Shown here: piece by piece, positions 4,235 to 25,567 of the stretch
Layout of the letters: each line of letters starts with the position of its first letter
Numbering within the stretch: the first letter of the stretch is position 1
Assembly (NCBI GenBank): GCA_017849315.1
Contig: JAFIHQ010000105.1
Span: 1 to 34,413, forward strand
Direction of reading: 5' to 3'
Source: Treponema sp.
GTDB taxonomy: Bacteria; Spirochaetota; Spirochaetia; Treponematales; Rectinemataceae
Length of the DNA: 34,413 bases
Notes under the pieces: generated by a model
The model's database searches: none
Told to the model about the DNA's origin: nothing
Seen by the model: the letters and a program-made list of their open reading frames with translations, nothing else
Translations under genes and position numbers: made by a program

Positions 4235-7200
4235 TTACACCGATCTTGACGAACAAAACGTTTTTTGCGTCAGTTCATCGGCGATCATCTCTGCCTGTTT
4301 GAGCACAGTTTCTGTCGCTAGCGCCTGCATATCTGGCGGATAGCCGTACTGTCGCAGCGTGCGCTTAACCATCACCTTGAGCCTTGCCTTCACGCTTTCC
4401 TTTATGGTCCAATCGATTGTGGCGTTCTGCCTTACCTTTTGATAGAGAACTATGGCGAGTTCCCGCAGTGTTTCCTTCTGCATCAACTCTTGTGCGCTCG
4501 TGTTATCCGCAATTGCAGTGTAAAAAGCATATTCATAGTCCGATAAACCCATCTCCGCCGGTTGCTTATCTATACGCTGAATTTCTTTGCTTAACTCGAT
4601 CAGTTCATCGATCACTTCGACAGCGGTGACGACCTTGTTGTAGTATCGCTGAAGAGACTCTTCCAGCATCTCCATAAGAGTATGGCTCTGCACTAGATTT
4701 TTCTTCATTCTCCCCTTGATCTCGTCGTTTAAAAGCTTCTTTAACACCTCCACTGCGATGTTTTGGTGCTCCATGTTCTTTACTTCTAGCAGGAATTCTT
4801 CAGAAAGGATGGAAATATCCGGTTTCTTTATACCGGCTGCATCAAAGACATCGATTACCTTTTCCGTGACCAAAGCCTGGTCGATAATTTGCTTGACGGT
4901 GGTCTCTATTTCTTCATCTGTTTTCCCACTTCCCGTGCTATCAAACTTCACCAGTCTGGCTTTCACCGCCTGATAGAACGCCACTTCTTCCTTGACTGCT
5001 GTCGCCCGCTCGTGTGGAATAGCGATGGCGAACGCCTTTGATAGGGCAGTAACTTCATCAACATAACGTTTTTTGCCGTCTTCAAGACCAAGAACATGAT
5101 CCTCGGCGGCGAGAATAATCGACAGGCGTTCTGAAGTGCTTGCGGTAAAATATCGCTGGTAATTGAATCCGTGAAACATCTGCGCAATGACTTCCAGCTT
5201 TTCAAGCATAACCTGAACAGCCTCTTCCTGAAGGACCGCAGGATCGCCCCTGCCGCCACTGTCAGCATAAAAGGCAAGCGCCTCTTTCAAATCAGCGGCA
5301 ATCCCGAGGTAATCCACGATCAGGCCACCAGGCTTGTCCTTATAGACCCTATTTACCCGCGCGATTGCCTGCATCAGTGTATGCCCTCTCATGGGCTTAT
5401 CAAGATACATAGTGTGAAGACATGGCACATCGAAGCCAGTGAGCCACATATCGCACACGATGACCAGTTTGAGTTCATCCTGCGGGTCTTTCATTCGCTC
5501 CGCCAGCATGCGCCGTTGTTCCTTTGTGGTGTGGTGCCGTGAAAGCTCAGGGCCATCCGATGATGCAGAGGTAATAACCACCTTGATGGAACCCTTTTTG
5601 AGGTCATCGTCCTGCCATTCTGGTCTTATTTTGATTATTTCATCATAGAGGCTGACGGCGATGAATCGAGACATCGCCACCACCATGGCTTTACCTTCAA
5701 AAGCCTGCTGGCGCTGCTCGAAATGAGACACAATATCTTTTGCAATGTGCCGAATTCGATCGCTGCTCCCTATCAGCGCTTCCAGCTGAGTCCATTTAGC
5801 CCTTGTCTTTTGTGTTTCGGCAAGTTCATCGAGTTTGAGTTCCTTATCCAGGTCGTTGATGAGTCTTTTCCCCTGTTCACTCAATTCGATTTTTGCGAGT
5901 CTGCTTTCGTAGTATATCTTCACGATGGCGCCGTCTTCCTGCGCTTGTGAGATGTCGTAGATGTCGACATAGTTACCAAAGACAGCTGGAGTGTTTCTAT
6001 CCTCTTTTTCTATTGGTGTACCCGTAAAACCGATATAGGTGGCATTGGGCAGGGCATCCCGCATGTACTTGGCAAAACCATACACGGTTTTTTTGCCAAC
6101 CACGTTTCCCTGTTCATCCTTTTCGTCTATCGTCTTTGCCCTGAAGCCATACTGGGTTCGATGAGCCTCATCGACGATTACCACGATGTTCCGTCTATCG
6201 GATAGCTGTGGATATATGTTACCCTCTTCCGGCTGGAACTTCTGAATCGTAGTAAAGACCACACCACCCGAGGCGACGTTGAGCAGTTCTTGTAAGTGTT
6301 CTCTATTCTCCGCCTGAACAGGATCCTGCCTGAGGAGTTGTTTTGAGGACGCAAAGGTATCGAAAAGCTGGTCATCCAGGTCGTTCCTGTCGGTAATGAC
6401 TAATATTGTTGGATTATCCAGCATTTGAATGATCTTGCCTGCAAAGAACACCATGGAAAGCGATTTTCCGCTTCCTTGCGTGTGCCATATCACGCCTCCC
6501 TTATGATCTCCCACAGCCTGAGTACGCACACTGGCAAGTCCATAATTCTCAGGGGCTTCTTTGACACTACCGGCCTCCTTTACGGCGGCATAGCCAGACG
6601 CCCGCAGGGTAGACTCCACAGCCTTATTTACCGCAAAATATTGATGATAGTAGGCCATCTTCTTGACAGTCTGAATGGATACGATACCAGTTTCTTTATC
6701 CTCTCTTTTGGATTTTTCAAACACGATAAAATGATGAATAAGGTCAAGAAGCGTTTTTTTGTTCAGCATGCCTCTGATAAGGGTTTCGAGCTGGCTTACC
6801 AGCCTGGATTCGTCCTTTGTGCCATCTATTGATTTCCACGCCATAAAATGACTGTAACCAGAGGAGATGGAGCCTGCCTTTGCCTCGAGCCCATCGGAGA
6901 TCACGATGAAGCCGTTATACGTAAATATGCCCGGAATCGTCTGTTTATAGGTTTGAATCTGGTTAAAGGCGGATCGCACTGTTGCCTGTTCATCTGCCGG
7001 GTTCTTCAACTCCATGACGACAAGTGGAATGCCGTTGACAAATAGGACGATGTCGGGACGCTTGTTGTTGTTACCTTCTATAACGGTATATTGATTGACC
7101 ACTAGAAATTCGTTGTTTTCTGGATTCTTATAATCGATGAGCCATACCAAATCTCCCCGTTCTACACCATCCCTTCTGTACTGTACCCGAATTCCTTCCG

Positions 7201-7483
7201 TGAGCATTCTGTGAAAGGCTTCGTTGTTTACAATGAGTTCTTGCGACCCAAAGCGCTGAATCTGCTTGATAGCATCGTCCTGCGCATCGACAGGAACTCC
7301 CGGGTTGATGCGTCCAATAGCGTTCCTCAGCCTTTGTAGTAAAAGCACTTCCTCCAAAGATTGCCTCTCCGCCCTATCCCCATCCGGCGCAATATCGGGA
7401 CCGGCACAGCACTGGTAGCCGTTTCCATCAAGGAGTTCGATGGCAAATTCTTCGATATCAGATTCGGTGATTCTGGAAGCCAT
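4235..7483 (-). CDS. hsdR: Type I restriction endonuclease, R subunit (HsdR)
   Basis: N-terminal PD-(D/E)xK-like motif PDIVLFVNGIPLVVMELK, helicase motif I HTQGSGKS, DEAH box VIVDEAHRTQ, and the long helical C-terminal domain typical of HsdR. I prefer the ATG at 7483 (AAGAGGG SD 4-5 nt upstream) over the ORF-track ATG at 7504. Confidence 0.95.
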   Translation of the reverse strand: MASRITESDIEEFAIELLDGNGYQCCAGPDIAPDGDRAERQSLEEVLLLQRLRNAIGRINPGVPVDAQDDAIKQIQRFGSQELIVNNEAFHRMLTEGIRVQYRRDGVERGDLVWLIDYKNPENNEFLVVNQYTVIEGNNNKRPDIVLFVNGIPLVVMELKNPADEQATVRSAFNQIQTYKQTIPGIFTYNGFIVISDGLEAKAGSISSGYSHFMAWKSIDGTKDESRLVSQLETLIRGMLNKKTLLDLIHHFIVFEKSKREDKETGIVSIQTVKKMAYYHQYFAVNKAVESTLRASGYAAVKEAGSVKEAPENYGLASVRTQAVGDHKGGVIWHTQGSGKSLSMVFFAGKIIQMLDNPTILVITDRNDLDDQLFDTFASSKQLLRQDPVQAENREHLQELLNVASGGVVFTTIQKFQPEEGNIYPQLSDRRNIVVIVDEAHRTQYGFRAKTIDEKDEQGNVVGKKTVYGFAKYMRDALPNATYIGFTGTPIEKEDRNTPAVFGNYVDIYDISQAQEDGAIVKIYYESRLAKIELSEQGKRLINDLDKELKLDELAETQKTRAKWTQLEALIGSSDRIRHIAKDIVSHFEQRQQAFEGKAMVVAMSRFIAVSLYDEIIKIRPEWQDDDLKKGSIKVVITSASSDGPELSRHHTTKEQRRMLAERMKDPQDELKLVIVCDMWLTGFDVPCLHTMYLDKPMRGHTLMQAIARVNRVYKDKPGGLIVDYLGIAADLKEALAFYADSGGRGDPAVLQEEAVQVMLEKLEVIAQMFHGFNYQRYFTASTSERLSIILAAEDHVLGLEDGKKRYVDEVTALSKAFAIAIPHERATAVKEEVAFYQAVKARLVKFDSTGSGKTDEEIETTVKQIIDQALVTEKVIDVFDAAGIKKPDISILSEEFLLEVKNMEHQNIAVEVLKKLLNDEIKGRMKKNLVQSHTLMEMLEESLQRYYNKVVTAVEVIDELIELSKEIQRIDKQPAEMGLSDYEYAFYTAIADNTSAQELMQKETLRELAIVLYQKVRQNATIDWTIKESVKARLKVMVKRTLRQYGYPPDMQALATETVLKQAEMIADELTQKTFCSSRSV

Positions 7484-7496
7484 TTTGCCCTCTTTT

Positions 7497-7561
7497 TGTC
7501 TCATCTATGAGACATATCTCGTTTTGTGTCTCACAAAATGCATTCCGTGAGACACAAAACG
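7497..7561. repeat. Nested inverted repeats built on TGAGACA/TGTCTCA, immediately upstream of hsdR
   Basis: TGTCTCA (7497-7503) / TGAGACA (7508-7514). Perfect 15-bp arms CGTTTTGTGTCTCAC (7520-7534) / GTGAGACACAAAACG (7547-7561) around a 12-nt loop that contains the palindrome AATGCATT. No U-tract follows on either strand. Confidence 0.9.
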
Positions 7562-7685
7562 GTCCCAAAATGAGAAATATATGCTAAATTCTTTCTACTC
7601 CTAACATCTTGCGTAAGTAATATAACTTGCACTGTATCTCTACTGTTGTTCTTCAGAAATTCAAATACAAATTCATCAACATTGG

Positions 7686-8330
7686 TCATTCCTTGTCCTC
7701 CTTAAAAGCCTTCAGCTCTGTTAGATATGCATTATAATCAACATAAAACAAGATTTCACTCGCAGAATAAGAATAGTCCCCCATATCAAAATCACCATAA
7801 CTTTCATCCAATAAGTCATTGAACTCTGCATTATCATCAAATGATATTTTATCCTTATATGTTTCAATATGTCGTCTAGGATTCTTATTCTCAAAAGCTC
7901 TAATAAGAAATGTAGCTATTATTTCCGTTGAATCTATAAGGAATTCTCTTGTCATTTCATCAACTCTACTATTGCGCTCTTTCAGCTCTTCTAACTCTTT
8001 GCCATGTGCCGTTATCCCTATTTCATTTCTAAGATTACCCATCTCTTGACCAATGCTTGCTAATGCAGTAGAAATATGATTCACCAATTCTTGATTGGCG
8101 TATCCAAGTGAATTAAATGCTTGTTTCAAAATTTTATTAGTAGTTGCATTTTCTTCAATTGAAATGTTTTTTAATTTACATATTTCTTTACAGATTGTTT
8201 CAAGTAGCGACTTTGCATTCTCAAATGCCGTGCTAAAGTCGTCCTGAATGTAGGTATCTATTCTTTGAGTATAAATTCGTAAATCAGACCATCGTCCATA
8301 TTGTTCAATTACTTGATTGAGCTTTTTCAT
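7686..8330 (-). CDS. Abi_C-like (abortive-infection C-terminal domain) protein embedded between hsdS and hsdR
   Basis: 214 aa. The central segment IGQEMGNLRNEIGITAHGK...EFLIDSTEIIATFLIRAFE resembles the RN..G.AHG signature plus following helix of the Abi_C family. Acidic, aromatic C-terminal tail. Very AT-rich (14/60 GC in 8101-8160). Confidence 0.6.
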   Translation of the reverse strand: MKKLNQVIEQYGRWSDLRIYTQRIDTYIQDDFSTAFENAKSLLETICKEICKLKNISIEENATTNKILKQAFNSLGYANQELVNHISTALASIGQEMGNLRNEIGITAHGKELEELKERNSRVDEMTREFLIDSTEIIATFLIRAFENKNPRRHIETYKDKISFDDNAEFNDLLDESYGDFDMGDYSYSASEILFYVDYNAYLTELKAFKEDKE

Positions 8331-8353: not shown

Positions 8354-9547
8354 TCATAATTTCACCCTGACCTCTCTGCTCATCAGTTTTGGAAGCAAAG
8401 TGTCACGAAGTTTTTCAAGAGTGCGGATTTGCATTTTATTGCATAAAATCCTCTTGATTATTGGATTCGACTTGGAAGAAAAAAGTTCAAGCTTACTTTT
8501 GGGAGGTATACGCATCTTTATTCTTAGTGTTTCTACTGGGCTTAAATTCGGTTGGGCAGTTCCTTTGGCCATTTCTTCTAGTAAACGTTTTGTCTTCTCC
8601 ATTCTAAAGTATATGTATGTGTATGCCATATCTCTACTATTTTTGGCAAAAAGTTTCGCAACTCTCTGATTCAATAGAGCATTATTCACGTCAACAAGAC
8701 AACACCTTCCAACATTACCGGTAAGCGACAATAAAATATCGCCAGGTTTCAAATAGCAATAATTCGGCATTCTTGAAGGAATATCATTTATCTTATCAGT
8801 CTTTGAAATATCTAGATGGCCATCCTGTACAGATTTAATTGTTATTAAGCAATACTTGCCTAACTCTGTGAATAAGTCTGACTTAAATGGAAAACCCGGA
8901 AGAATATCTATCATATTAGCTATTGTTCCTTCCTCCCACTTCTCATCCGCCTCTTCAATAAACCACTGCCGAAACAGCGCCTCTGCCATCTGCTCCAATG
9001 TATGGTTTTCCCGGTTAAGCAAGTCTATCTTGTCGTCAAGACTGGAGAGCACAGAGGCAATGGTGCGCTGTTCGGGAAGTGGAGGAAGAAGAATTTCAAG
9101 ACTTTCAATATCTGCTGGTCTTAATGAAGGGTATGCTGAAGTTGATGCTTCTGCGATTATATCTAAATATTCTACAATTTCATGAGATGTCAGAAAATAA
9201 TAAATGAAAAAAGAATCTGCCTCTTTCTGATTTGTCTCAATTACTATAAATCCTGTTGAAACTACAAGGTTTGGAGGAGGATTTTTGATTATTCCATAAT
9301 GTCTTTGAATAGGCCTTACTGTTGAATAAATAATATCTTTATCTTTTACAAGTCTTTTTGCTCGGCTTGGTGCATCAGATAATAAAAGTTCCTGATAGCA
9401 ATCAACCTTCCCTCGCGTTATTGAGCTAGTATCTAAGTATAATATTTTATTTTGTGAATATTCATTATCAATGCTATTTCTATTTATTTCCGCAACCTCT
9501 CCCAGCTTGCATTCCCTCCATCCTTCCGGTATTCTGTCAGCCATCAT
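8354..9547 (-). CDS. hsdS: Type I R-M specificity subunit (HsdS), two target-recognition domains
   Basis: Two variable TRDs separated by the conserved central helix LPPLPEQRTIASVLSSLDDKIDLLNRENHTLEQMAEALFRQWF, with a matching C-terminal helix ...IRTLEKLRDTLLPKLMSREV. The start overlaps the upstream hnh stop (ATGA). Confidence 0.9.
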   Translation of the reverse strand: MMADRIPEGWRECKLGEVAEINRNSIDNEYSQNKILYLDTSSITRGKVDCYQELLLSDAPSRAKRLVKDKDIIYSTVRPIQRHYGIIKNPPPNLVVSTGFIVIETNQKEADSFFIYYFLTSHEIVEYLDIIAEASTSAYPSLRPADIESLEILLPPLPEQRTIASVLSSLDDKIDLLNRENHTLEQMAEALFRQWFIEEADEKWEEGTIANMIDILPGFPFKSDLFTELGKYCLITIKSVQDGHLDISKTDKINDIPSRMPNYCYLKPGDILLSLTGNVGRCCLVDVNNALLNQRVAKLFAKNSRDMAYTYIYFRMEKTKRLLEEMAKGTAQPNLSPVETLRIKMRIPPKSKLELFSSKSNPIIKRILCNKMQIRTLEKLRDTLLPKLMSREVRVKL

Positions 9548-10095
9548 GCCTCTCCTTCCACACGCAGATCCAGGTCAAGTACCGACAGTCTTTTTCCTCC
9601 GCAGTTGCTGTCCAGAGTTCCATTGCACTGGTGGCAGTAGTAAATGGTCTTCAGGTATTTCTTTTCAAGAAGCTCTGGGATGATGTCTGATGTGTTTTCA
9701 TCGGGATATAGCTCCTCGTAAAAGTGGTACAGTCCCTTCGTGCCCTTCCTAGAGTTGCAGGTTCTGCATGCCCATATCTGGTTGTGTATACCTTGGATCC
9801 GATCGCAGGTGGAACAGCGTTCGTTGATATTGAGTGAACGAGGAACAATGTGTTCCCAGCTCAAGCCGCTGGTGCTATCGCAGTAGATGCATTGTTTCTC
9901 CATTTCCACGAGCTGCCGGTCTTCCCGCAGTATTTCTGACCATTTCTTTTCATCGTTTTTCAATTCGCGAAAGGTTTTCTTGATAAAACCATACGACGTT
10001 GCCTTTGCATCCAGGCCAAAGGCGCTCTTTGCGATGATCTTTGCATATTGATAATAGATAAGGTCTCGTATTGTCTGTACTTCTCTATCAGGCAT
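9544..10095 (-). CDS. HNH endonuclease with four CxxC motifs (zinc-finger HNH), embedded in the R-M operon
   Basis: CIYCD...LSWEHIVPRS...HNQIWACRTCNSRKG is an HNH core. CxxC pairs: CIYC, CSTC, CRTC, CHQC. GGGAGG SD 6 nt upstream. Overlaps the ORF6N stop by 8 nt and the hsdS start by 4 nt. Confidence 0.8.
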   Translation of the reverse strand: MPDREVQTIRDLIYYQYAKIIAKSAFGLDAKATSYGFIKKTFRELKNDEKKWSEILREDRQLVEMEKQCIYCDSTSGLSWEHIVPRSLNINERCSTCDRIQGIHNQIWACRTCNSRKGTKGLYHFYEELYPDENTSDIIPELLEKKYLKTIYYCHQCNGTLDSNCGGKRLSVLDLDLRVEGEA

Positions 10096-10438
10096 AACAA
10101 GCCTCCCGCTTAATACTAACTTTTATCGCTGTTTCACTATGCAGAACAGTGGAAAGCATTGCTGCACCCTGCTCTGTAAATGCGTAGGGAAGATAGCGCC
10201 TGCCGCCCCAACTTGAGGTCACAATTTGTGACCTCAAGATTCCCATTTCAGATTCATTAAGCTGAAACATGAATTCAAGAGGAAATCGTTCTCTGTTTCG
10301 TTTTACTGCTTGATTCAACACCTTCGTTTCTACACCATAAAGCGCAGATAGATCTTCATCCAGCATCACCTGTACTCCACGAATTGTGTATATCCTGTTT
10401 TGAATATCTTCAACGGACACAAGTTCGTTTTCACTCAT
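10088..10438 (-). CDS. ORF6N-domain (KilA-N/Bro-N-related DNA-binding) protein
   Basis: [45 protein letters not shown]...EM is the characteristic ORF6N domain sequence. The start overlaps the hsdM stop (ATGA). Confidence 0.8.
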
Positions 10439-11979
10439 TTTATCTCAATCTTCTTCAAATTTTCCATTATGAGCCTGTTTAGTCGTTCTTCCTCTTTTAG
10501 CTCCTCCTCGAACTCTGCCTTTAACGCTGCAAAACGCTCATTAAAGTCAAAATCGTCTTCTTCATCGGGTAACCCCACATAGCGGCCGGGAGTGAGTACG
10601 TAATCCAGCTCTCGCACCCTTTCGATAGACGCAGAATTGCAGAACCCCTTTACGTCCTGGTATGTGCCGTTGGGATTTCGCCAGTTGTGATAGGTTGATG
10701 CAATCTTTTCTATGTCTTCGTTAGAAAACTCGAGCGTTCTGCGATTGATAAGGTGTCCCATGTTTCGGGCATCGATAAACAGAATCTCGTCGGTGCGGGT
10801 ACGATAGCCACCATTTGCCTTGTTCCTGCTGACAAACCATAGGCAGGCGGGTATCTGGGTGTTCAAGAATAATTTTGGAGGAAGGTTAACAATGCAGTCA
10901 ACGAGACGATCTTCAATGATCTGCTTCCGTATCTCTCCCTCACCTGATGTCTTCGAGGTAAGCGAGCCTTTTGCAAGTACAAACCCGGCAGCGCCGCTCG
11001 GGGCAAGATGATAAATGAAGTGCTGCACCCACGCGTAGTTTGCATTTCCTTCAGGCGGTACGCCATACTTCCATCTTCCATCTTTCCTGAGTAACTCCCC
11101 ACTCCAGTCGCTGTCGTTAAAAGGTGGATTGGCAAGCACATAATCCGCTTTCAAGTCCTTATGCGCATCGTTTAAAAATGAGCCTTCGTTGTTCCATTTG
11201 ACCTGTGAGCTATCTATTGCTCGTATGGCGAGGTTCATCTTGCAGAGCCGCCACGTGGTGAGGTTGCTCTCCTGACCATAGATAGAGATATCATTTACTC
11301 TGCCCTGATGTTGGGCGACAAACTTTTCCGACTGCACGAACATCCCGCCAGAGCCACAGCAGGGATCGAACACCCTACCTTTGTAGGGTTCGAGCATCTC
11401 GACAAGTAACTCTACAACGCTCCGGGGAGTATAGAATTGGCCTCCCTTCTTTCCTTCTGCAAGGGCAAACTCGCCAAGAAAGTACTCAAACACATGGCCC
11501 AGTACATCGGCGCTTCTGGCTTTTGCATCGTGCATGGCTATATTGCTGATAAGGTCAATAAGCCCACCAAGGTTCGCAGGGTCAAGATTGCCCCGGGCAT
11601 ATACCTTTGGCAGCACATCCTTGAGCGATGGATTCTCCTTTTCGATGGCATCCATGGCTGCATCAACAATGGTACCTATCGTGGGTTTCTTCGCCTCCGC
11701 TTGCAGGAATGACCAGCGAGCTTCATGAGGAACAAAAAAGACGTTCTCCGCACGATACTCATCTCTATCTTCGGGGTCTGCTCCCGCATACTCCCCTTCG
11801 CCTTTTTTCAGCTTCTCGTACAGGCTTTCAAAGGCATCCGATATGTACTTGAGAAAAATTAAGCCCAGAACGACATGCTTGTATTCCGCAGCATCTATGT
11901 TTTTTCTGAGCTTGTCAGCAGCCTTCCAGAGCTGTTTTTCCAGTGGTTCTTCTTGCCAGTTATCGTTTTTCTTTGCCAT
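10435..11979 (-). CDS. hsdM: Type I R-M N6-adenine DNA methyltransferase subunit (HsdM)
   Basis: HsdM_N-like N-terminus (LWKAADKLR...[16 protein letters not shown]), AdoMet motif [13 protein letters not shown], and catalytic motif IV LANPPFN. Confidence 0.95.
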
Positions 11980-12062: not shown

Positions 12063-12482
12063 GACGAGCAGGTCAAGGCAATAGTCACGTTCGAGGCAAA
12101 CAAACAGGAAATGAACCTCCAGCAGGTTGGAGAAGCCTTAAAAGAGGCTCTAGCGCACTATGGAGCCCCTTGTATATTCAATACTGATCAGGGCAGCCAG
12201 TTTACGTCGAATACGTTTATACATCTTCTCCAGGAACAGGGGATAAGAATCAGCATGGATGGCCGCGGCCGCTGGCGGGATAACGTGCATATCGAACGGC
12301 TCTGGAGGACGGTCAAGTACGAAGACATCTATCTCCAGGGCTATGAAAACGTACGGTCGTTAAAACGGGGCCTTGCTTCGTACTTTATAGTTTATAACCA
12401 GTATAGGTTCCATCAGAACCTGGACTACGAGACGCGCGACCACCGCTATCGTTCGTTTCAGGCAAAGGATTTGGTAGCATGA
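12063..12482 (+). mobile_element. IS3-family transposase (rve/integrase core) 3' remnant, 5'-truncated pseudogene
   Basis: ...CIFNTDQGSQFTS...ISMDGRGRWRDNVHIERLWRTVKYEDIYL...YNQYRFHQNLDY matches the C-terminal DDE region (D..GSQ; DN..IERLWR.LKYE) of IS3-family OrfB. The in-frame upstream sequence runs into a stop at 12060-12062. No N-terminal HTH, OrfA or first catalytic D region is present. Confidence 0.8.
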
Positions 12483-25124: not shown

Positions 25125-25218
25125 GAATCGATTTTCATTCAAAAAACCTGCAAAGTTATAGGTTCGAGAGACCCTACCCCCTTGTACTCGCCCCAAGGCT
25201 TGTGCTAGCCTCAGTCCA

Positions 25219-25364
25219 CCGATGGAGGAGCGATCCCCAAGAGTACGGACCGGAGGCTTCGAGAGCCAAAGAGGGTGCCGGAAAGGGGAGGATCGCCGAA
25301 GGAGCAAGGCTTTCTCGAGGGCTTGTTCTTGGACGTCCGGGCTAATACCCGACGGCTGTCGCGG
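25219..25364 (+). promoter_or_regulatory. Lysine riboswitch (L-box) aptamer in the leader of asd-lysC-dapBAD
   Basis: CCGATGGAGGAGCGATCCCCAAGAGTACGG...GCCGGAAAGGGGAGGATCGCCGAAGGAGCAAGGC...GCTTGTTCTTGGACGTCCGGGCTAATACCCGACGGCTGTCGCGG aligns block for block with the B. subtilis lysC and T. maritima L-box cores as I recall them (GAGGxGCG..CAAGAGTA; GAAAGGGGAG..CGCCGAAG; TGG...; CTGTCxxGG), with compensating P2-P5 helices. It lies upstream of lysine-biosynthesis genes. Confidence 0.85.
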
Positions 25365-25567
25365 AAAATACATAGTTCCGCGGAGCGCCTGACGTATGCT
25401 TTTTACTGATAAGTGCATAGGTTGTATGTGGACTTGACTTGGATAGATGCTGGCCACGCCAGAATGTCAGAAACTGACACATCCAGTCCAAAATGACAAC
25501 ACAAGCACAGGAACAGTAAAGAGCTATCGTGGACCTCCTGAAGTACTGGCTTTAAGGAGAGGCCACG

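Follow-up and report, generated by a model that had tools for sequence, protein, structure and literature searches.

What could be the function of a small gene placed between hsdS and hsdR of a type I restriction-modification (R-M) operon? The question is raised by a 214-aa product encoded in the window, a 34,413-nt stretch of Treponema sp. DNA (contig JAFIHQ010000105.1), which the sequence-only reading had proposed as an Abi_C-like, R-M-guarded effector in the slot of prrC. Detailed knowledge of suicide modules that back up R-M systems is limited to very few examples (PrrC, Ronin and PARIS), and the present family would be a compact and widespread one, with one 214-aa protein, no ATPase, no antitoxin and a distribution over at least a dozen phyla.

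Our preferred reading, held at a probability of roughly 0.55 and drawn by analogy, is a two-module RNase effector that would act as a PrrC-like second line behind restriction. It would be produced from the hsdM-hsdS-(effector)-hsdR transcript, with translation coupled to hsdS and without a dedicated antitoxin gene. In the uninfected cell the RNase would be kept silent through its tail, docked on the type I R-M complex and/or self-inhibited. When a phage disturbs this silencing, the HEPN domains would become active, cellular RNA would be cut and the infection would be aborted. We infer the RNase activity of the effector, its toxicity, its silencing by R-M and its trigger; that it is R-M-guarded is proposed by analogy to PrrC.

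Operon structure and precedents

The effector gene and its neighbours in the R-M operon were arranged as follows:

10435..11979, minus strand: hsdM, methyltransferase subunit, first gene of the operon (HsdM_N + N6_Mtase, E = 1.5e-109)
8354..9547, minus strand: hsdS, specificity subunit (Methylase_S, E = 1e-29), directly upstream of the effector with a 23 nt gap
7686..8330, minus strand: effector gene, an ORF with ATG start encoding 214 aa (N-terminal helices, Abi_C/AbiJ-type HEPN core, linker and C-terminal tail domain)
7505..7685, minus strand: effector-hsdR spacer, with a 52-aa ORF (7531-7689) and a 21-nt palindrome (7520-7561)
4235..7504, minus strand: hsdR, restriction subunit (HSDR_N, SWI2_SNF2, T1R_D3-like and T1RH-like_C domains), downstream of the effector

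The neighbours of the prrC slot, from hsdS to hsdR, were thus as had been supposed. A GAGGA Shine-Dalgarno-like sequence was present 12 nt 5' of the effector ATG. The true start of hsdR is probably the ATG at 7483 (MASRITES..., with AAGAGGG before it), as suggested by the A6 consensus and the relative L001. The 52-aa spacer ORF, which overlaps the effector stop codon as ATGA, was rejected as a conserved partner, since its first 38 aa were kept only in the nearest relative L001 (38 aa there); it is probably a remnant or a chance ORF. In other loci the position of this spacer is a site of defence cargo.

The AT-richness of the gene had been held to set it apart from its neighbours, and the counts given for it were exact (14/60 GC in 8101-8160 and 29/60 in 5401-5460). 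Over whole genes, GC was 0.326 for the effector, 0.370 for hsdS, 0.478 for hsdR and 0.484 for hsdM, so the lower GC relative to hsdR and hsdM stands, but the argument built on it has no weight because hsdS is AT-rich as well. The same was seen in related loci, where both the effector homologue (71/76) and hsdS (70/70) were ~6 GC points under hsdR/hsdM. AT-richness characterizes the hsdS + effector module as a whole and does not mark out the effector gene, and it was ruled out as a sign of separate acquisition. The DNA of the window is not of enterobacterial origin, and a protein with 99% identity was present in an anaerobic-digester bin.

No dedicated antitoxin was found at the operon, where an MNT gene, RNA repeats and Rfam families were looked for. 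The neighbours of the effector are hsdS and hsdR, not the adjacent minimal nucleotidyltransferase of a HEPN-MNT pair; no direct-repeat array, which would point to the tandem-repeat RNA of a type III toxin-antitoxin system (AbiV / AbiF / ToxIN type), was present near the effector; and the Rfam search of the operon gave no match.

PrrC / EcoprrI of E. coli occupies the same position (hsdM-hsdS-effector-hsdR) and is also a HEPN-superfamily RNase, and the effector likely follows a similar logic, by analogy, as a latent RNase backing up restriction. PrrC/EcoprrI is a precedent for an R-M complex silencing a toxin (Anantharaman et al. 2013, PMC3710099). In contrast to the effector, PrrC is ~400 aa long, cleaves the anticodon of tRNA-Lys upon triggering by the Stp peptide of T4, and has its nuclease regulated by an ABC-type ATPase at the N-terminus. 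The N-terminal ABC-type NTPase (AAA_13) typical of PrrC and RloC was not found by Pfam in the 214-aa effector; PrrC-like AAA_13 proteins were observed as separate extra genes beside the effector in loci L032 and L040.

A tested precedent for the proposed logic is Ronin, in which HsdMS silences the toxin RonA and phage anti-restriction proteins release it (Silas et al., bioRxiv 10.1101/2023.04.06.535777). Ronin consists of hsdS-hsdM with a 61-aa membrane protein as effector and is without hsdR, whereas the present locus has a full-length hsdR and a 214-aa effector that is helical and soluble in the AF2 model.

The general idea, a solo AbiJ HEPN in R-M operons as PrrC-like backup, is already published. 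PMC3710099 describes some solo AbiJ-type HEPN proteins in R-M operons, a class to which the effector belongs, and for 16 HEPN clades suggests a multi-pronged defence of the PrrC kind. The passages covered here contain neither the ~214-aa family, its strict hsdS-hsdR position and C-terminal domain, nor the second family and the phage homologues reported below. Likewise, no description of the tail or of the ~214-aa family was found in the literature on HEPN proteins with hsdS/hsdR or on Abi_C, of which coverage was incomplete, so this absence is not proof.

The HEPN core and its putative catalytic motif

Two features were assigned to the first module:

7887..8246, minus strand: HEPN core, residues ~29-148 (Pfam Abi_C at residues 66-143, PADLOC AbiJ at residues 29-148, helical bundle in AF2)
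8001..8030, minus strand: putative catalytic motif R101-N102-E-I-G-I-T107-A-H109-G110, with R, N, T, H and G invariant in 30/30 homologues

That the product is Abi_C-like was borne out by Pfam, with a match to Abi_C (PF14355) of 33.9 bits against a gathering score of 24 (E = 3.4e-8), covering profile positions 2-82 of 83. The homologue search returned 701 clusters of ~214 aa, and PF14355 was present in 120/120 among the homologue matches listed. The PADLOC AbiJ model was matched weakly (E = 0.0037) at model positions 163-279 of 281, which is the C-terminal HEPN part only; no AbiJ N-terminal domain was matched by this model, and the strict full-length AbiJ architecture is lacking. The NCBIfam model STM4504/CBY_0614 (AbiJ-NTD4 type) gave 18.6 bits, below its cutoff of 150.

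The HEPN-like nature proposed for Abi_C agrees with PMC3710099, in which Abi_C/AbiJ is a HEPN family and a conserved acidic residue or Ex3[KR] in the first core helix is a HEPN feature. In the effector, E44 and K48 of E44-T-I-C-K48 were both invariant in 30/30 homologues and are placed inside model helix 32-53; together with the invariance of R-N-x4-T-x-H-G, this fits the features given in that paper. The motif belongs to LRNEIGITAHGK (residues 100-111), and EFLIDSTEIIATFLIRAFE corresponds to residues 129-147.

Seven residues separate R101 from H109 (R101-N102-x6-H109), exactly as first counted and one beyond the classical Rx4-6H. Counted after the polar residue, the spacer is 6, at the top of the range of 2-6 (commonest 5) reported for Abi_C proteins (PMC13590631). 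Divergent relatives also keep R, N and H (VRNIEGSASHG, IRNLHGESSHG, LRNKYSFASHG).

The same Abi_C PF14355 catalytic domain, with its R-N-...-H motif, is found in SadR of Staphylococcus aureus (PMC13590631) and in lactococcal AbiJ (Abi-859). The RN...H signature gains support from SadR, an RNase that requires the corresponding R, N and H both to degrade RNA and to defend against phages, and whose motif is essential for defence against phages and plasmids alike (PMC13590631). Among Abi_C proteins, RNase activity has been demonstrated for SadR alone. Unlike the effector, which has no AbiJ-NTD and lies in a type I R-M operon, SadR and AbiJ are stand-alone genes whose C-terminal HEPN stands behind N-terminal domains (AbiJ-NTDs). 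In the effector the HEPN core comes before the tail, which is outside the coverage of the AbiJ model (ending at residue 148), and the R-to-H spacer is one residue longer (RNEIGITAH) than in SadR (RNEYGDAH).

The AF2 model of the full protein was an all-helical bundle (pLDDT 77.5, pTM 0.59), with pLDDT < 50 in the loop of H109. Foldseek of this model against PDB gave no hit at E <= 0.001; the best HEPN entries (2hsb, 1wty, 5yep_C and 6m6w_H) had E = 1.7-2.5 and target-normalised TM of 0.33-0.51, and a PDB sequence search with the family profile returned chance matches only. By its sequence, the core of the effector belongs to the AbiJ/Abi_C-type HEPN family, and it would most likely be a metal-independent endoribonuclease acting via R101, N102 and H109.

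The C-terminal tail domain and its phage homologues

The second module follows the core after a poorly conserved linker:

7689..7859, minus strand: tail domain, residues ~158-214, acidic (pI 4.05), with the fold alpha / beta-hairpin / alpha / alpha

An unusual acidic, aromatic tail had been remarked on from the sequence, and such a stretch indeed begins at residue 164. The tail is conserved and forms a separable domain of ~50 aa, as opposed to low-complexity sequence. Residues N, F, N, D, Y, ASEIL, D and AY were invariant among the homologues, the core could be written as F-N-D-x2-D...G-x-F-x-M-G-x-Y-S-Y-x-A-S-E-I-L-F-x-V-D-x2-A-Y, and AF2 modelled the domain alone with pLDDT 90.1. Pfam recognized no family in the tail or in a 63-aa phage protein that carries it. 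Foldseek of the tail alone against PDB found nothing (best E = 6.8), so either no relative has been solved or the domain is too small for scoring. In all other proteins of the effector loci the tail was searched for and was absent.

A second effector family, of ~350 aa and unrelated to the Abi_C family, has the same tail at its N-terminus, together with an RNxFxH (R-N-x3-H) motif. It was located in the same hsdS-hsdR slot in 3/3 look-ups and in L167. Pfam touched HEPN_Swt1 in 1/15 members (E = 0.011), and the family may be called HEPN-like on its motif alone. The tail offers a clearly separable, putatively regulatory module, for which the second family is a natural domain swap. One protein, P0260, has two tail copies in tandem.

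The tail was also found standing alone in small acidic (pI ~4) phage proteins, in 2194 clusters. Homology between them was indicated by hhalign (probability 97.2%, E = 4e-11), by an HMM built from phage proteins only, which matched the effector tail of this locus (E = 1e-6), and by Foldseek of the tail against BFVD (top nine hits with probability 0.94-1.00 and query-normalised TM 0.62-0.79). The phage genes form part of arrays in which small early or accessory genes are lined up; the homologue of Providencia phage PS3, where two paralogues are present, lies upstream of primase, helicase and polymerase. They are currently hypothetical (phrog_9294, 9396, 37123), and a role for them would be the first function for a large hypothetical phage family.

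Tentatively, at somewhat less than even odds, the ~50-aa tail could be an undescribed portable domain marking RNase effectors behind hsdS in type I R-M operons, and the arms race between phage and toxin would be one of molecular mimicry: both would compete for a common partner, be it a subunit of the R-M enzyme or one another, and the phage protein would act either as a trigger, setting the RNase free, or as a decoy, disarming it. The phage homologues are candidate triggers or inhibitors, and the shared domain suggests an unexplored contact point between phages and R-M defence. How the toxin reads the state of the R-M enzyme, or senses a phage protein, becomes a testable question. The rV5-like phages with a tail homologue are reported to be very sensitive to the R-M systems tested, which speaks against a simple anti-restriction protein displacing the tail. 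Aop1, the uncharacterised trigger of Ronin, was ruled out as a relative of the phage proteins, as it is basic (pI ~8) while they are acidic (pI ~4).

The tail might also be a bait or target of these phage proteins and no R-M dock. As a captured phage domain it would sense the phage directly, pairing with the phage protein and so switching the RNase on; or the phage protein would serve anti-defence, as a dominant-negative decoy whose pairing with the tail prevents activation. This alternative is possible but doubtful. The homology itself, the size of the phage family with its placement among early or accessory genes, and the tandem tails of P0260, as expected of a self-pairing domain, all speak for it. 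However, homology alone is silent on the direction of copying and on any meeting of the proteins. Hosts of the cultured phages that encode the domain include Escherichia, Pseudomonas and Klebsiella, whereas a nucleotide-level search of 5,426 complete E. coli genomes gave no match to the effector gene. The bait reading also leaves the obligate R-M operon position unexplained.

Position of the effector in type I R-M operons

The loci examined, spread over a dozen phyla or more and including one archaeon, all (80/80) had the homologue directly downstream of hsdS and upstream of hsdR, on the same strand, and the same layout was seen in 2/2 plasmid relatives of 25-30% identity. The slot and the R-M linkage expected of the family by the sequence-only reading therefore hold throughout. 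The homologue overlapped hsdS in 42/73 loci and was 1-30 nt apart from it in 26/73 (together 68/73), and it overlapped hsdR in 36/66. In most loci the effector overlaps both genes or abuts them, and there is no antitoxin-like gene beside it.

The junction also serves as a cargo hotspot. Among 60 HsdR-anchored loci with enough upstream sequence, the HEPN/tail effector was present in 6, other inserts in 36 and none in 10, where hsdS abuts hsdR. Unrelated defence genes seen in the slot comprised Schlafen/AlbA_2, RhuM, RhuM-Fic, AAA_15 + GmrSD, AAA_13, Mrr, AAA + S8 peptidase and SIR2-like genes. With the effector in only 6/60 loci, the R-M system does not need it, and an obligatory role in the R-M lineage was ruled out because close HsdR relatives lack it.

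These data bear on the reading that the effector is an autonomous abortive-infection toxin, which rides in a defence hotspot and senses phage alone like AbiJ/SadR, with no functional link to R-M. The many unrelated defence genes of the slot, with DarTG2 among them in E. coli, favour it, as does the fact that SadR defends as a single gene outside R-M operons (PMC13590631). We nevertheless regard it as unlikely. Hotspot cargo is typically found in many contexts, while this family was seen only here; the effector is nearly always coupled in translation to hsdS, with extra cargo after it in 24/66 loci and before it in 3/73; and the second family with the same tail keeps the same slot. If the tail served for nothing but dimerisation and the effector were an ordinary Abi acting by itself, the case would reduce to the annotation 'AbiJ-type HEPN solo in R-M operon', as foreseen in 2013.

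Very improbable is a non-toxic accessory R-M subunit. Its HEPN-like domain, as in the MtlR type, would bind to nucleic acid or to a subunit but not cleave, and would modulate assembly, the alleviation of restriction, or expression. The expression of the effector in stoichiometry and translational coupling with hsdS and hsdR, its co-phylogeny with both HsdR and HsdM, the lack of an antitoxin gene and the existence of non-catalytic HEPN families (PMC3710099) agree with it. Against it, R, N and H are kept without exception in the family and also in divergent relatives, close HsdR relatives work without the effector, and the second slot family also keeps its R-N-x3-H motif. The effector distance matrix tracked those of HsdR (Mantel r = 0.73) and HsdM (r = 0.64), for which shared inheritance of one mobile operon could be enough.

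In the Picosynechococcus operon, an MNT + DUF86 pair was observed as a separate module between hsdM and hsdS.

The effector gene, its operon and its predicted family

The ORF at 7686..8330 (-) was a real one, starting with ATG and encoding the 214-aa effector just as described from the sequence alone, with LRNEIGITAHGK at residues 100-111, the amphipathic helix at 129-147, and the acidic, aromatic tail from residue 164. Residue numbers count Met1 of the 214-aa protein as 1; this residue was absent from alignment A1 and from the first AF2 model, in which numbers are one lower. The effector is translationally coupled into a type I R-M operon with the following members:

10435-11979 (-), hsdM
10088-10438 (-), ORF6N gene between hsdM and hsdS (Pfam E = 1e-35; PADLOC candidate PDC-S05, E = 2e-50)
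9544-10095 (-), HNH gene between hsdM and hsdS, with weak PtuB-like and IscB-like matches
8354-9547 (-), hsdS, preceding the effector
7686..8330 (-), effector, between hsdS and hsdR
4235-7504 (-), hsdR, after the effector

Judged from relatives, the true start of hsdR is most likely the ATG at 7483 (MASRITES, with AAGAGGG before it). At least 8 of 80 related loci also had an ORF6N gene in this place, and the HNH gene was seen there only in the window and in one related locus (L001). The R-M island, about 4.2-12.5 kb of the window, lies between housekeeping genes, a formate/nitrite transporter on one side and RibD_C/GntR on the other. A truncated IS integrase core (rve / rve_3, 12111-12482, +) adjoins the hsdM end of the operon, and a full-length lysine riboswitch (Rfam RF00168, 85 bits) was found at 25215-25396 (+).

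The GC counts behind the claimed AT-richness were exact on recount, and the effector (0.326) was indeed poorer in GC than hsdR (0.478) and hsdM (0.484), but it was not singular, as hsdS was AT-rich too (0.370). Since in related loci hsdS, like the effector, was about 6 points under hsdR/hsdM (71/76 loci for the effector and 70/70 for hsdS), low GC is a trait of the module and not a mark of the effector.

The Abi_C resemblance was borne out by Pfam PF14355 on residues 66-143 (33.9 bits, gathering score 24; E = 3.4e-8). The PADLOC AbiJ model gave a weak match (E = 0.0037) confined to the C-terminal HEPN part of the model, whose positions 163-279 of 281 aligned with residues 29-148, and no NCBIfam model matched the effector at its cutoff. 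A protein database search gave 701 clusters at E <= 1e-3, nearly all of about 214 aa with PF14355; the named ones were "abortive infection family protein" or "hypothetical protein", and one was mislabelled as HigA antitoxin. Among 30 aligned homologues, whose identity to the window protein is 57-87%, conservation spanned the full length, with R101, N102, T107, H109 and G110 invariant together with E37, N38, K40, E44, K48 and a block in the tail.

SadR, an Abi_C protein of S. aureus, was shown in 2026 to be an RNase, whose motif RNEYGDAH supplies the R225, N226 and H232 needed for RNA degradation and defence (PMC13590631). The window motif, RNEIGITAH, is one residue longer. In the notation of the SadR paper, Abi_C spacers range from 2 to 6 with 5 the commonest (PMC13590631), and that of the effector is 6, the top of the range. 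The R-to-H distance flagged earlier is thus unusual against the classical Rx4-6H, yet inside the family range, and because R-x7-H is also kept in divergent relatives (VRNIEGSASHG, IRNLHGESSHG, LRNKYSFASHG) the concern over spacing is answered. By sequence, the effector reads as an Abi_C family protein with an intact catalytic-type motif.

Abi_C/AbiJ is placed in the HEPN superfamily in the passages of Anantharaman et al. (2013, PMC3710099) that deal with it. AF2, run with the 30-sequence alignment, predicted an all-helical bundle, then a linker, then a small alpha/beta unit (mean pLDDT 77.5, pTM 0.59), in which the linker (residues ~150-160) and the loop around H109 had low confidence. Foldseek of this model against PDB gave no match at E <= 0.001, the HEPN structures 2hsb, 1wty, 5yep_C and 6m6w_H appearing only at E = 1.7-2.5, and a PDB sequence search with the family profile gave no solved relative. 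The modelled fold is consistent with HEPN, short of demonstration.

Position and inheritance of the effector

A pattern scan for homologues, one genome per species, gave 80 loci from at least a dozen phyla (including Bacteroidota, Desulfobacterota, Bacillota, Pseudomonadota, Spirochaetota, Chlorobiota, Cyanobacteria, Verrucomicrobiota, Chloroflexota, Fibrobacterota, Caldisericota and Nitrospinota) and one Methanosarcinaceae archaeon. The slot noted in the window held throughout: the homologue was directly 3' of hsdS on the same strand in 80/80 loci, with hsdR downstream wherever the contig reaches; in L080 it follows an hsdM-S fusion in place of hsdS. Of 73 junctions between the hsdS stop and the effector start, 42 overlapped, 26 were of 1-30 nt and 3 exceeded 300 nt; of 66 between the effector stop and the hsdR start, 36 overlapped, one was of 1-30 nt and 24 exceeded 400 nt. 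The large gaps were filled by defence-type genes, namely Schlafen/AlbA_2 with HATPase_c_4 (10 loci), RhuM (6 loci), RhuM-Fic, AAA_15 with GmrSD, PrrC-like AAA_13 (2 loci, L032 and L040), Mrr (Mrr_cat), AAA with S8 peptidase (Peptidase_S8) and SIR2-like DUF4917. Cargo of this kind makes the junction of effector and hsdR a hotspot, for example in L005, L008, L029, L032, L033, L040, L044 and L053.

Plasmid relatives in Picosynechococcus PCC 7003 and Paraburkholderia FT54, at 25-30% identity, kept the layout hsdM-hsdS-X-hsdR. In the Picosynechococcus sp. PCC 7003 plasmid (L096), a nucleotidyltransferase and DUF86 (MNT-HEPN) pair at 5084-5727 sits between hsdM and hsdS; together with the distant Abi_C/tail homologue in the hsdS-hsdR slot, this gives the operon two HEPN modules. 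On a 64-kb IMG/VR contig (L081, 2889-3077), an Abi_C-family homologue (57% identity) was limited to its N-terminal 63 residues; this may be a fragment, or an R-M operon beside a prophage.

Over 49 complete loci, mean pairwise identity was 79% for HsdM, 76% for HsdR, 55% for the effector and 32% for HsdS. Effector distances were correlated with HsdR distances (Mantel r = 0.73) and HsdM distances (r = 0.64), and therefore the effector has moved along with a single type I lineage that is widely transferred. In the reverse direction, 80 metagenomic loci were picked by HsdR similarity alone (46-74% identity), 60 of them with sufficient upstream sequence; a HEPN/tail effector was present in 6/60, other inserts in 36/60, hsdS abutted hsdR in 10/60, and hsdS was not seen in 8/60. 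Because only those 6 had it, the effector is optional hotspot cargo, yet it was found in no other place.

The tail domain, a second effector family and phage homologues

The tail (residues ~158-214, pI 4.05) was conserved as strongly as the catalytic motif, and AF2 of the tail alone gave helix, hairpin, helix, helix at pLDDT 90.1. The AbiJ model stops before this region, Pfam has no family for it, and a PDB structural search with it gave no match. It is a domain separate from the catalytic part. Its profile retrieved 235 proteins at E <= 1e-3 from 1.84 billion representative proteins. Among Abi_C variants, one of 296 aa (P0260) had two tandem tail copies and one of 359 aa (P0235) an extra ~150-aa C-terminal domain beyond the tail.

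Beyond Abi_C types, the profile matched proteins of 337-372 aa with the tail at the N-terminus (P0191, P0226, P0229, P0256, P0259, P0270), here called family 2. After the tail, these have a helical region with invariant L-N-x2-R-N-x-F-x-H, a canonical R-x4-H, HEPN-like motif; no Pfam family was assigned, HEPN_Swt1 being touched in 1 of 15 members (E = 0.011). The genes lay between hsdS and hsdR, overlapping both, in 3/3 members looked up, whose HsdR had the domain make-up of the window's at 49-55% identity, and L167 was a fourth case:

L086 8001-9050, L087 3420-4469, L088 1379-2491 and L167 4803-5954, family 2 genes (~340-372 aa)

Among all ORFs >=40 aa of all fetched loci, the tail was confined to the gene directly behind hsdS and to phage proteins, and none was found in HsdM, HsdS, HsdR or other cargo.

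The phage proteins came from an IMG/VR scan, in which 63-aa proteins on 12-104 kb viral contigs aligned to residues 168-213 only (42-46% identity). By tblastn, one viral 63-mer matched 176 cultured phage genomes, 94 of Escherichia (mostly rV5-like), 43 of Pseudomonas, and others of Klebsiella, Proteus, Providencia, Stenotrophomonas, Rhodococcus, Clavibacter and Vibrio. Homologue positions were:

L082 7962-8153; L089 2931-3131 and 1683-1886; L090 2387-2728; L091 2459-2710; also in L092-L095

Homology of tail and phage proteins is solid. It was supported by the tail profile on viral 63-mers (37 bits, E = 2e-4 for a 1.84e9-protein library), by hhalign of the two profiles (probability 97.2%, E = 4e-11, 38 columns), by a phage-only HMM, whose E values were 1e-6 for the tail in the window and 1e-7 to 6e-9 for family 2, and by Foldseek of the tail model against BFVD, whose top nine were uncharacterised phage proteins (probability 0.94-1.00, query-normalised TM 0.62-0.79). 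The phage family has 2194 clusters of acidic proteins (58-146 aa, pI ~4.05-4.25), in which a coiled coil often precedes the core and an acidic run follows it; Pfam entries fell on 5 of the 120 clusters listed, all outside the shared core, and the family falls in phrog_9294, 9396 and 37123, all function-unknown entries. In 7 phage genome records the homologue was annotated hypothetical within an array of small genes; such arrays are early or accessory genes. In the 41-kb podophage PS3 it lies at 2.9 kb, 5' of the genes for primase, helicase and polymerase; a paralogue lies at 1.7 kb. The rV5-like phages, which carry the homologue, are described in the BASEL study as exceptionally susceptible to its tested R-M systems, which lie outside this type I lineage; a broad anti-restriction role is therefore unlikely for the phage homologue.

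Proposed mechanism, alternatives and the spacer before hsdR

RNase activity and defence are established for SadR (PMC13590631), and silencing of a toxin by an R-M complex until a phage inhibitor comes is described for PrrC/EcoprrI/Stp, in the passages on that system in PMC3710099, and for Ronin (bioRxiv 10.1101/2023.04.06.535777). No antitoxin gene was found for the effector, and the modular tail is common to family 2, in the same slot, and to phage proteins. The effector would most likely be a latent RNase, kept silent by its tail through docking on the R-M complex and/or self-association, and freed by phage interference. The probability of this whole reading is put at about 0.55.

As for the trigger, a tentative variant makes the tail a bait for, or target of, the phage homologues, acting as trigger or decoy; it is compatible with both R-M silencing and an autonomous toxin. 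The latter, an autonomous Abi toxin sitting in the hotspot, is the main rival and rather unlikely: an optional effector and varied other cargo would suit it, but the exclusive position and the sharing of the slot by family 2 argue against it. As to known systems, the effector was rejected as PrrC for having no ABC ATPase and as strict-sense AbiJ for being without the N-terminal domain, and it is no HEPN-MNT pair, type III toxin-antitoxin system or Ronin either.

Some solo AbiJ-type HEPN proteins encoded with R-M systems are recorded by Anantharaman et al. (2013, PMC3710099), and a PrrC-like hypothesis is proposed for all R-M-linked HEPN clades in the relevant passages of that paper. The effector as framed by the sequence-only reading is a new, uncharacterised addition to a known kind. 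The literature searched gave no account of a gene whose place is tied this strictly to hsdS in different phyla, nor of the tail domain, of a second effector family that also uses it, or of the large phage family in which it recurs.

In the window, the spacer between effector and hsdR (7484-7685) holds a 52-aa ORF (7531-7689) whose ATG shares ATGA with the effector stop codon and whose first 38 aa were conserved in L001 only. It also contains a 21-nt palindrome (7520-7561, 90% complementary) and, immediately 5' of the hsdR start, four TGAGACA/TGTCTCA copies. The spacer could be an operator, an attenuator, or a scar left by lost cargo.
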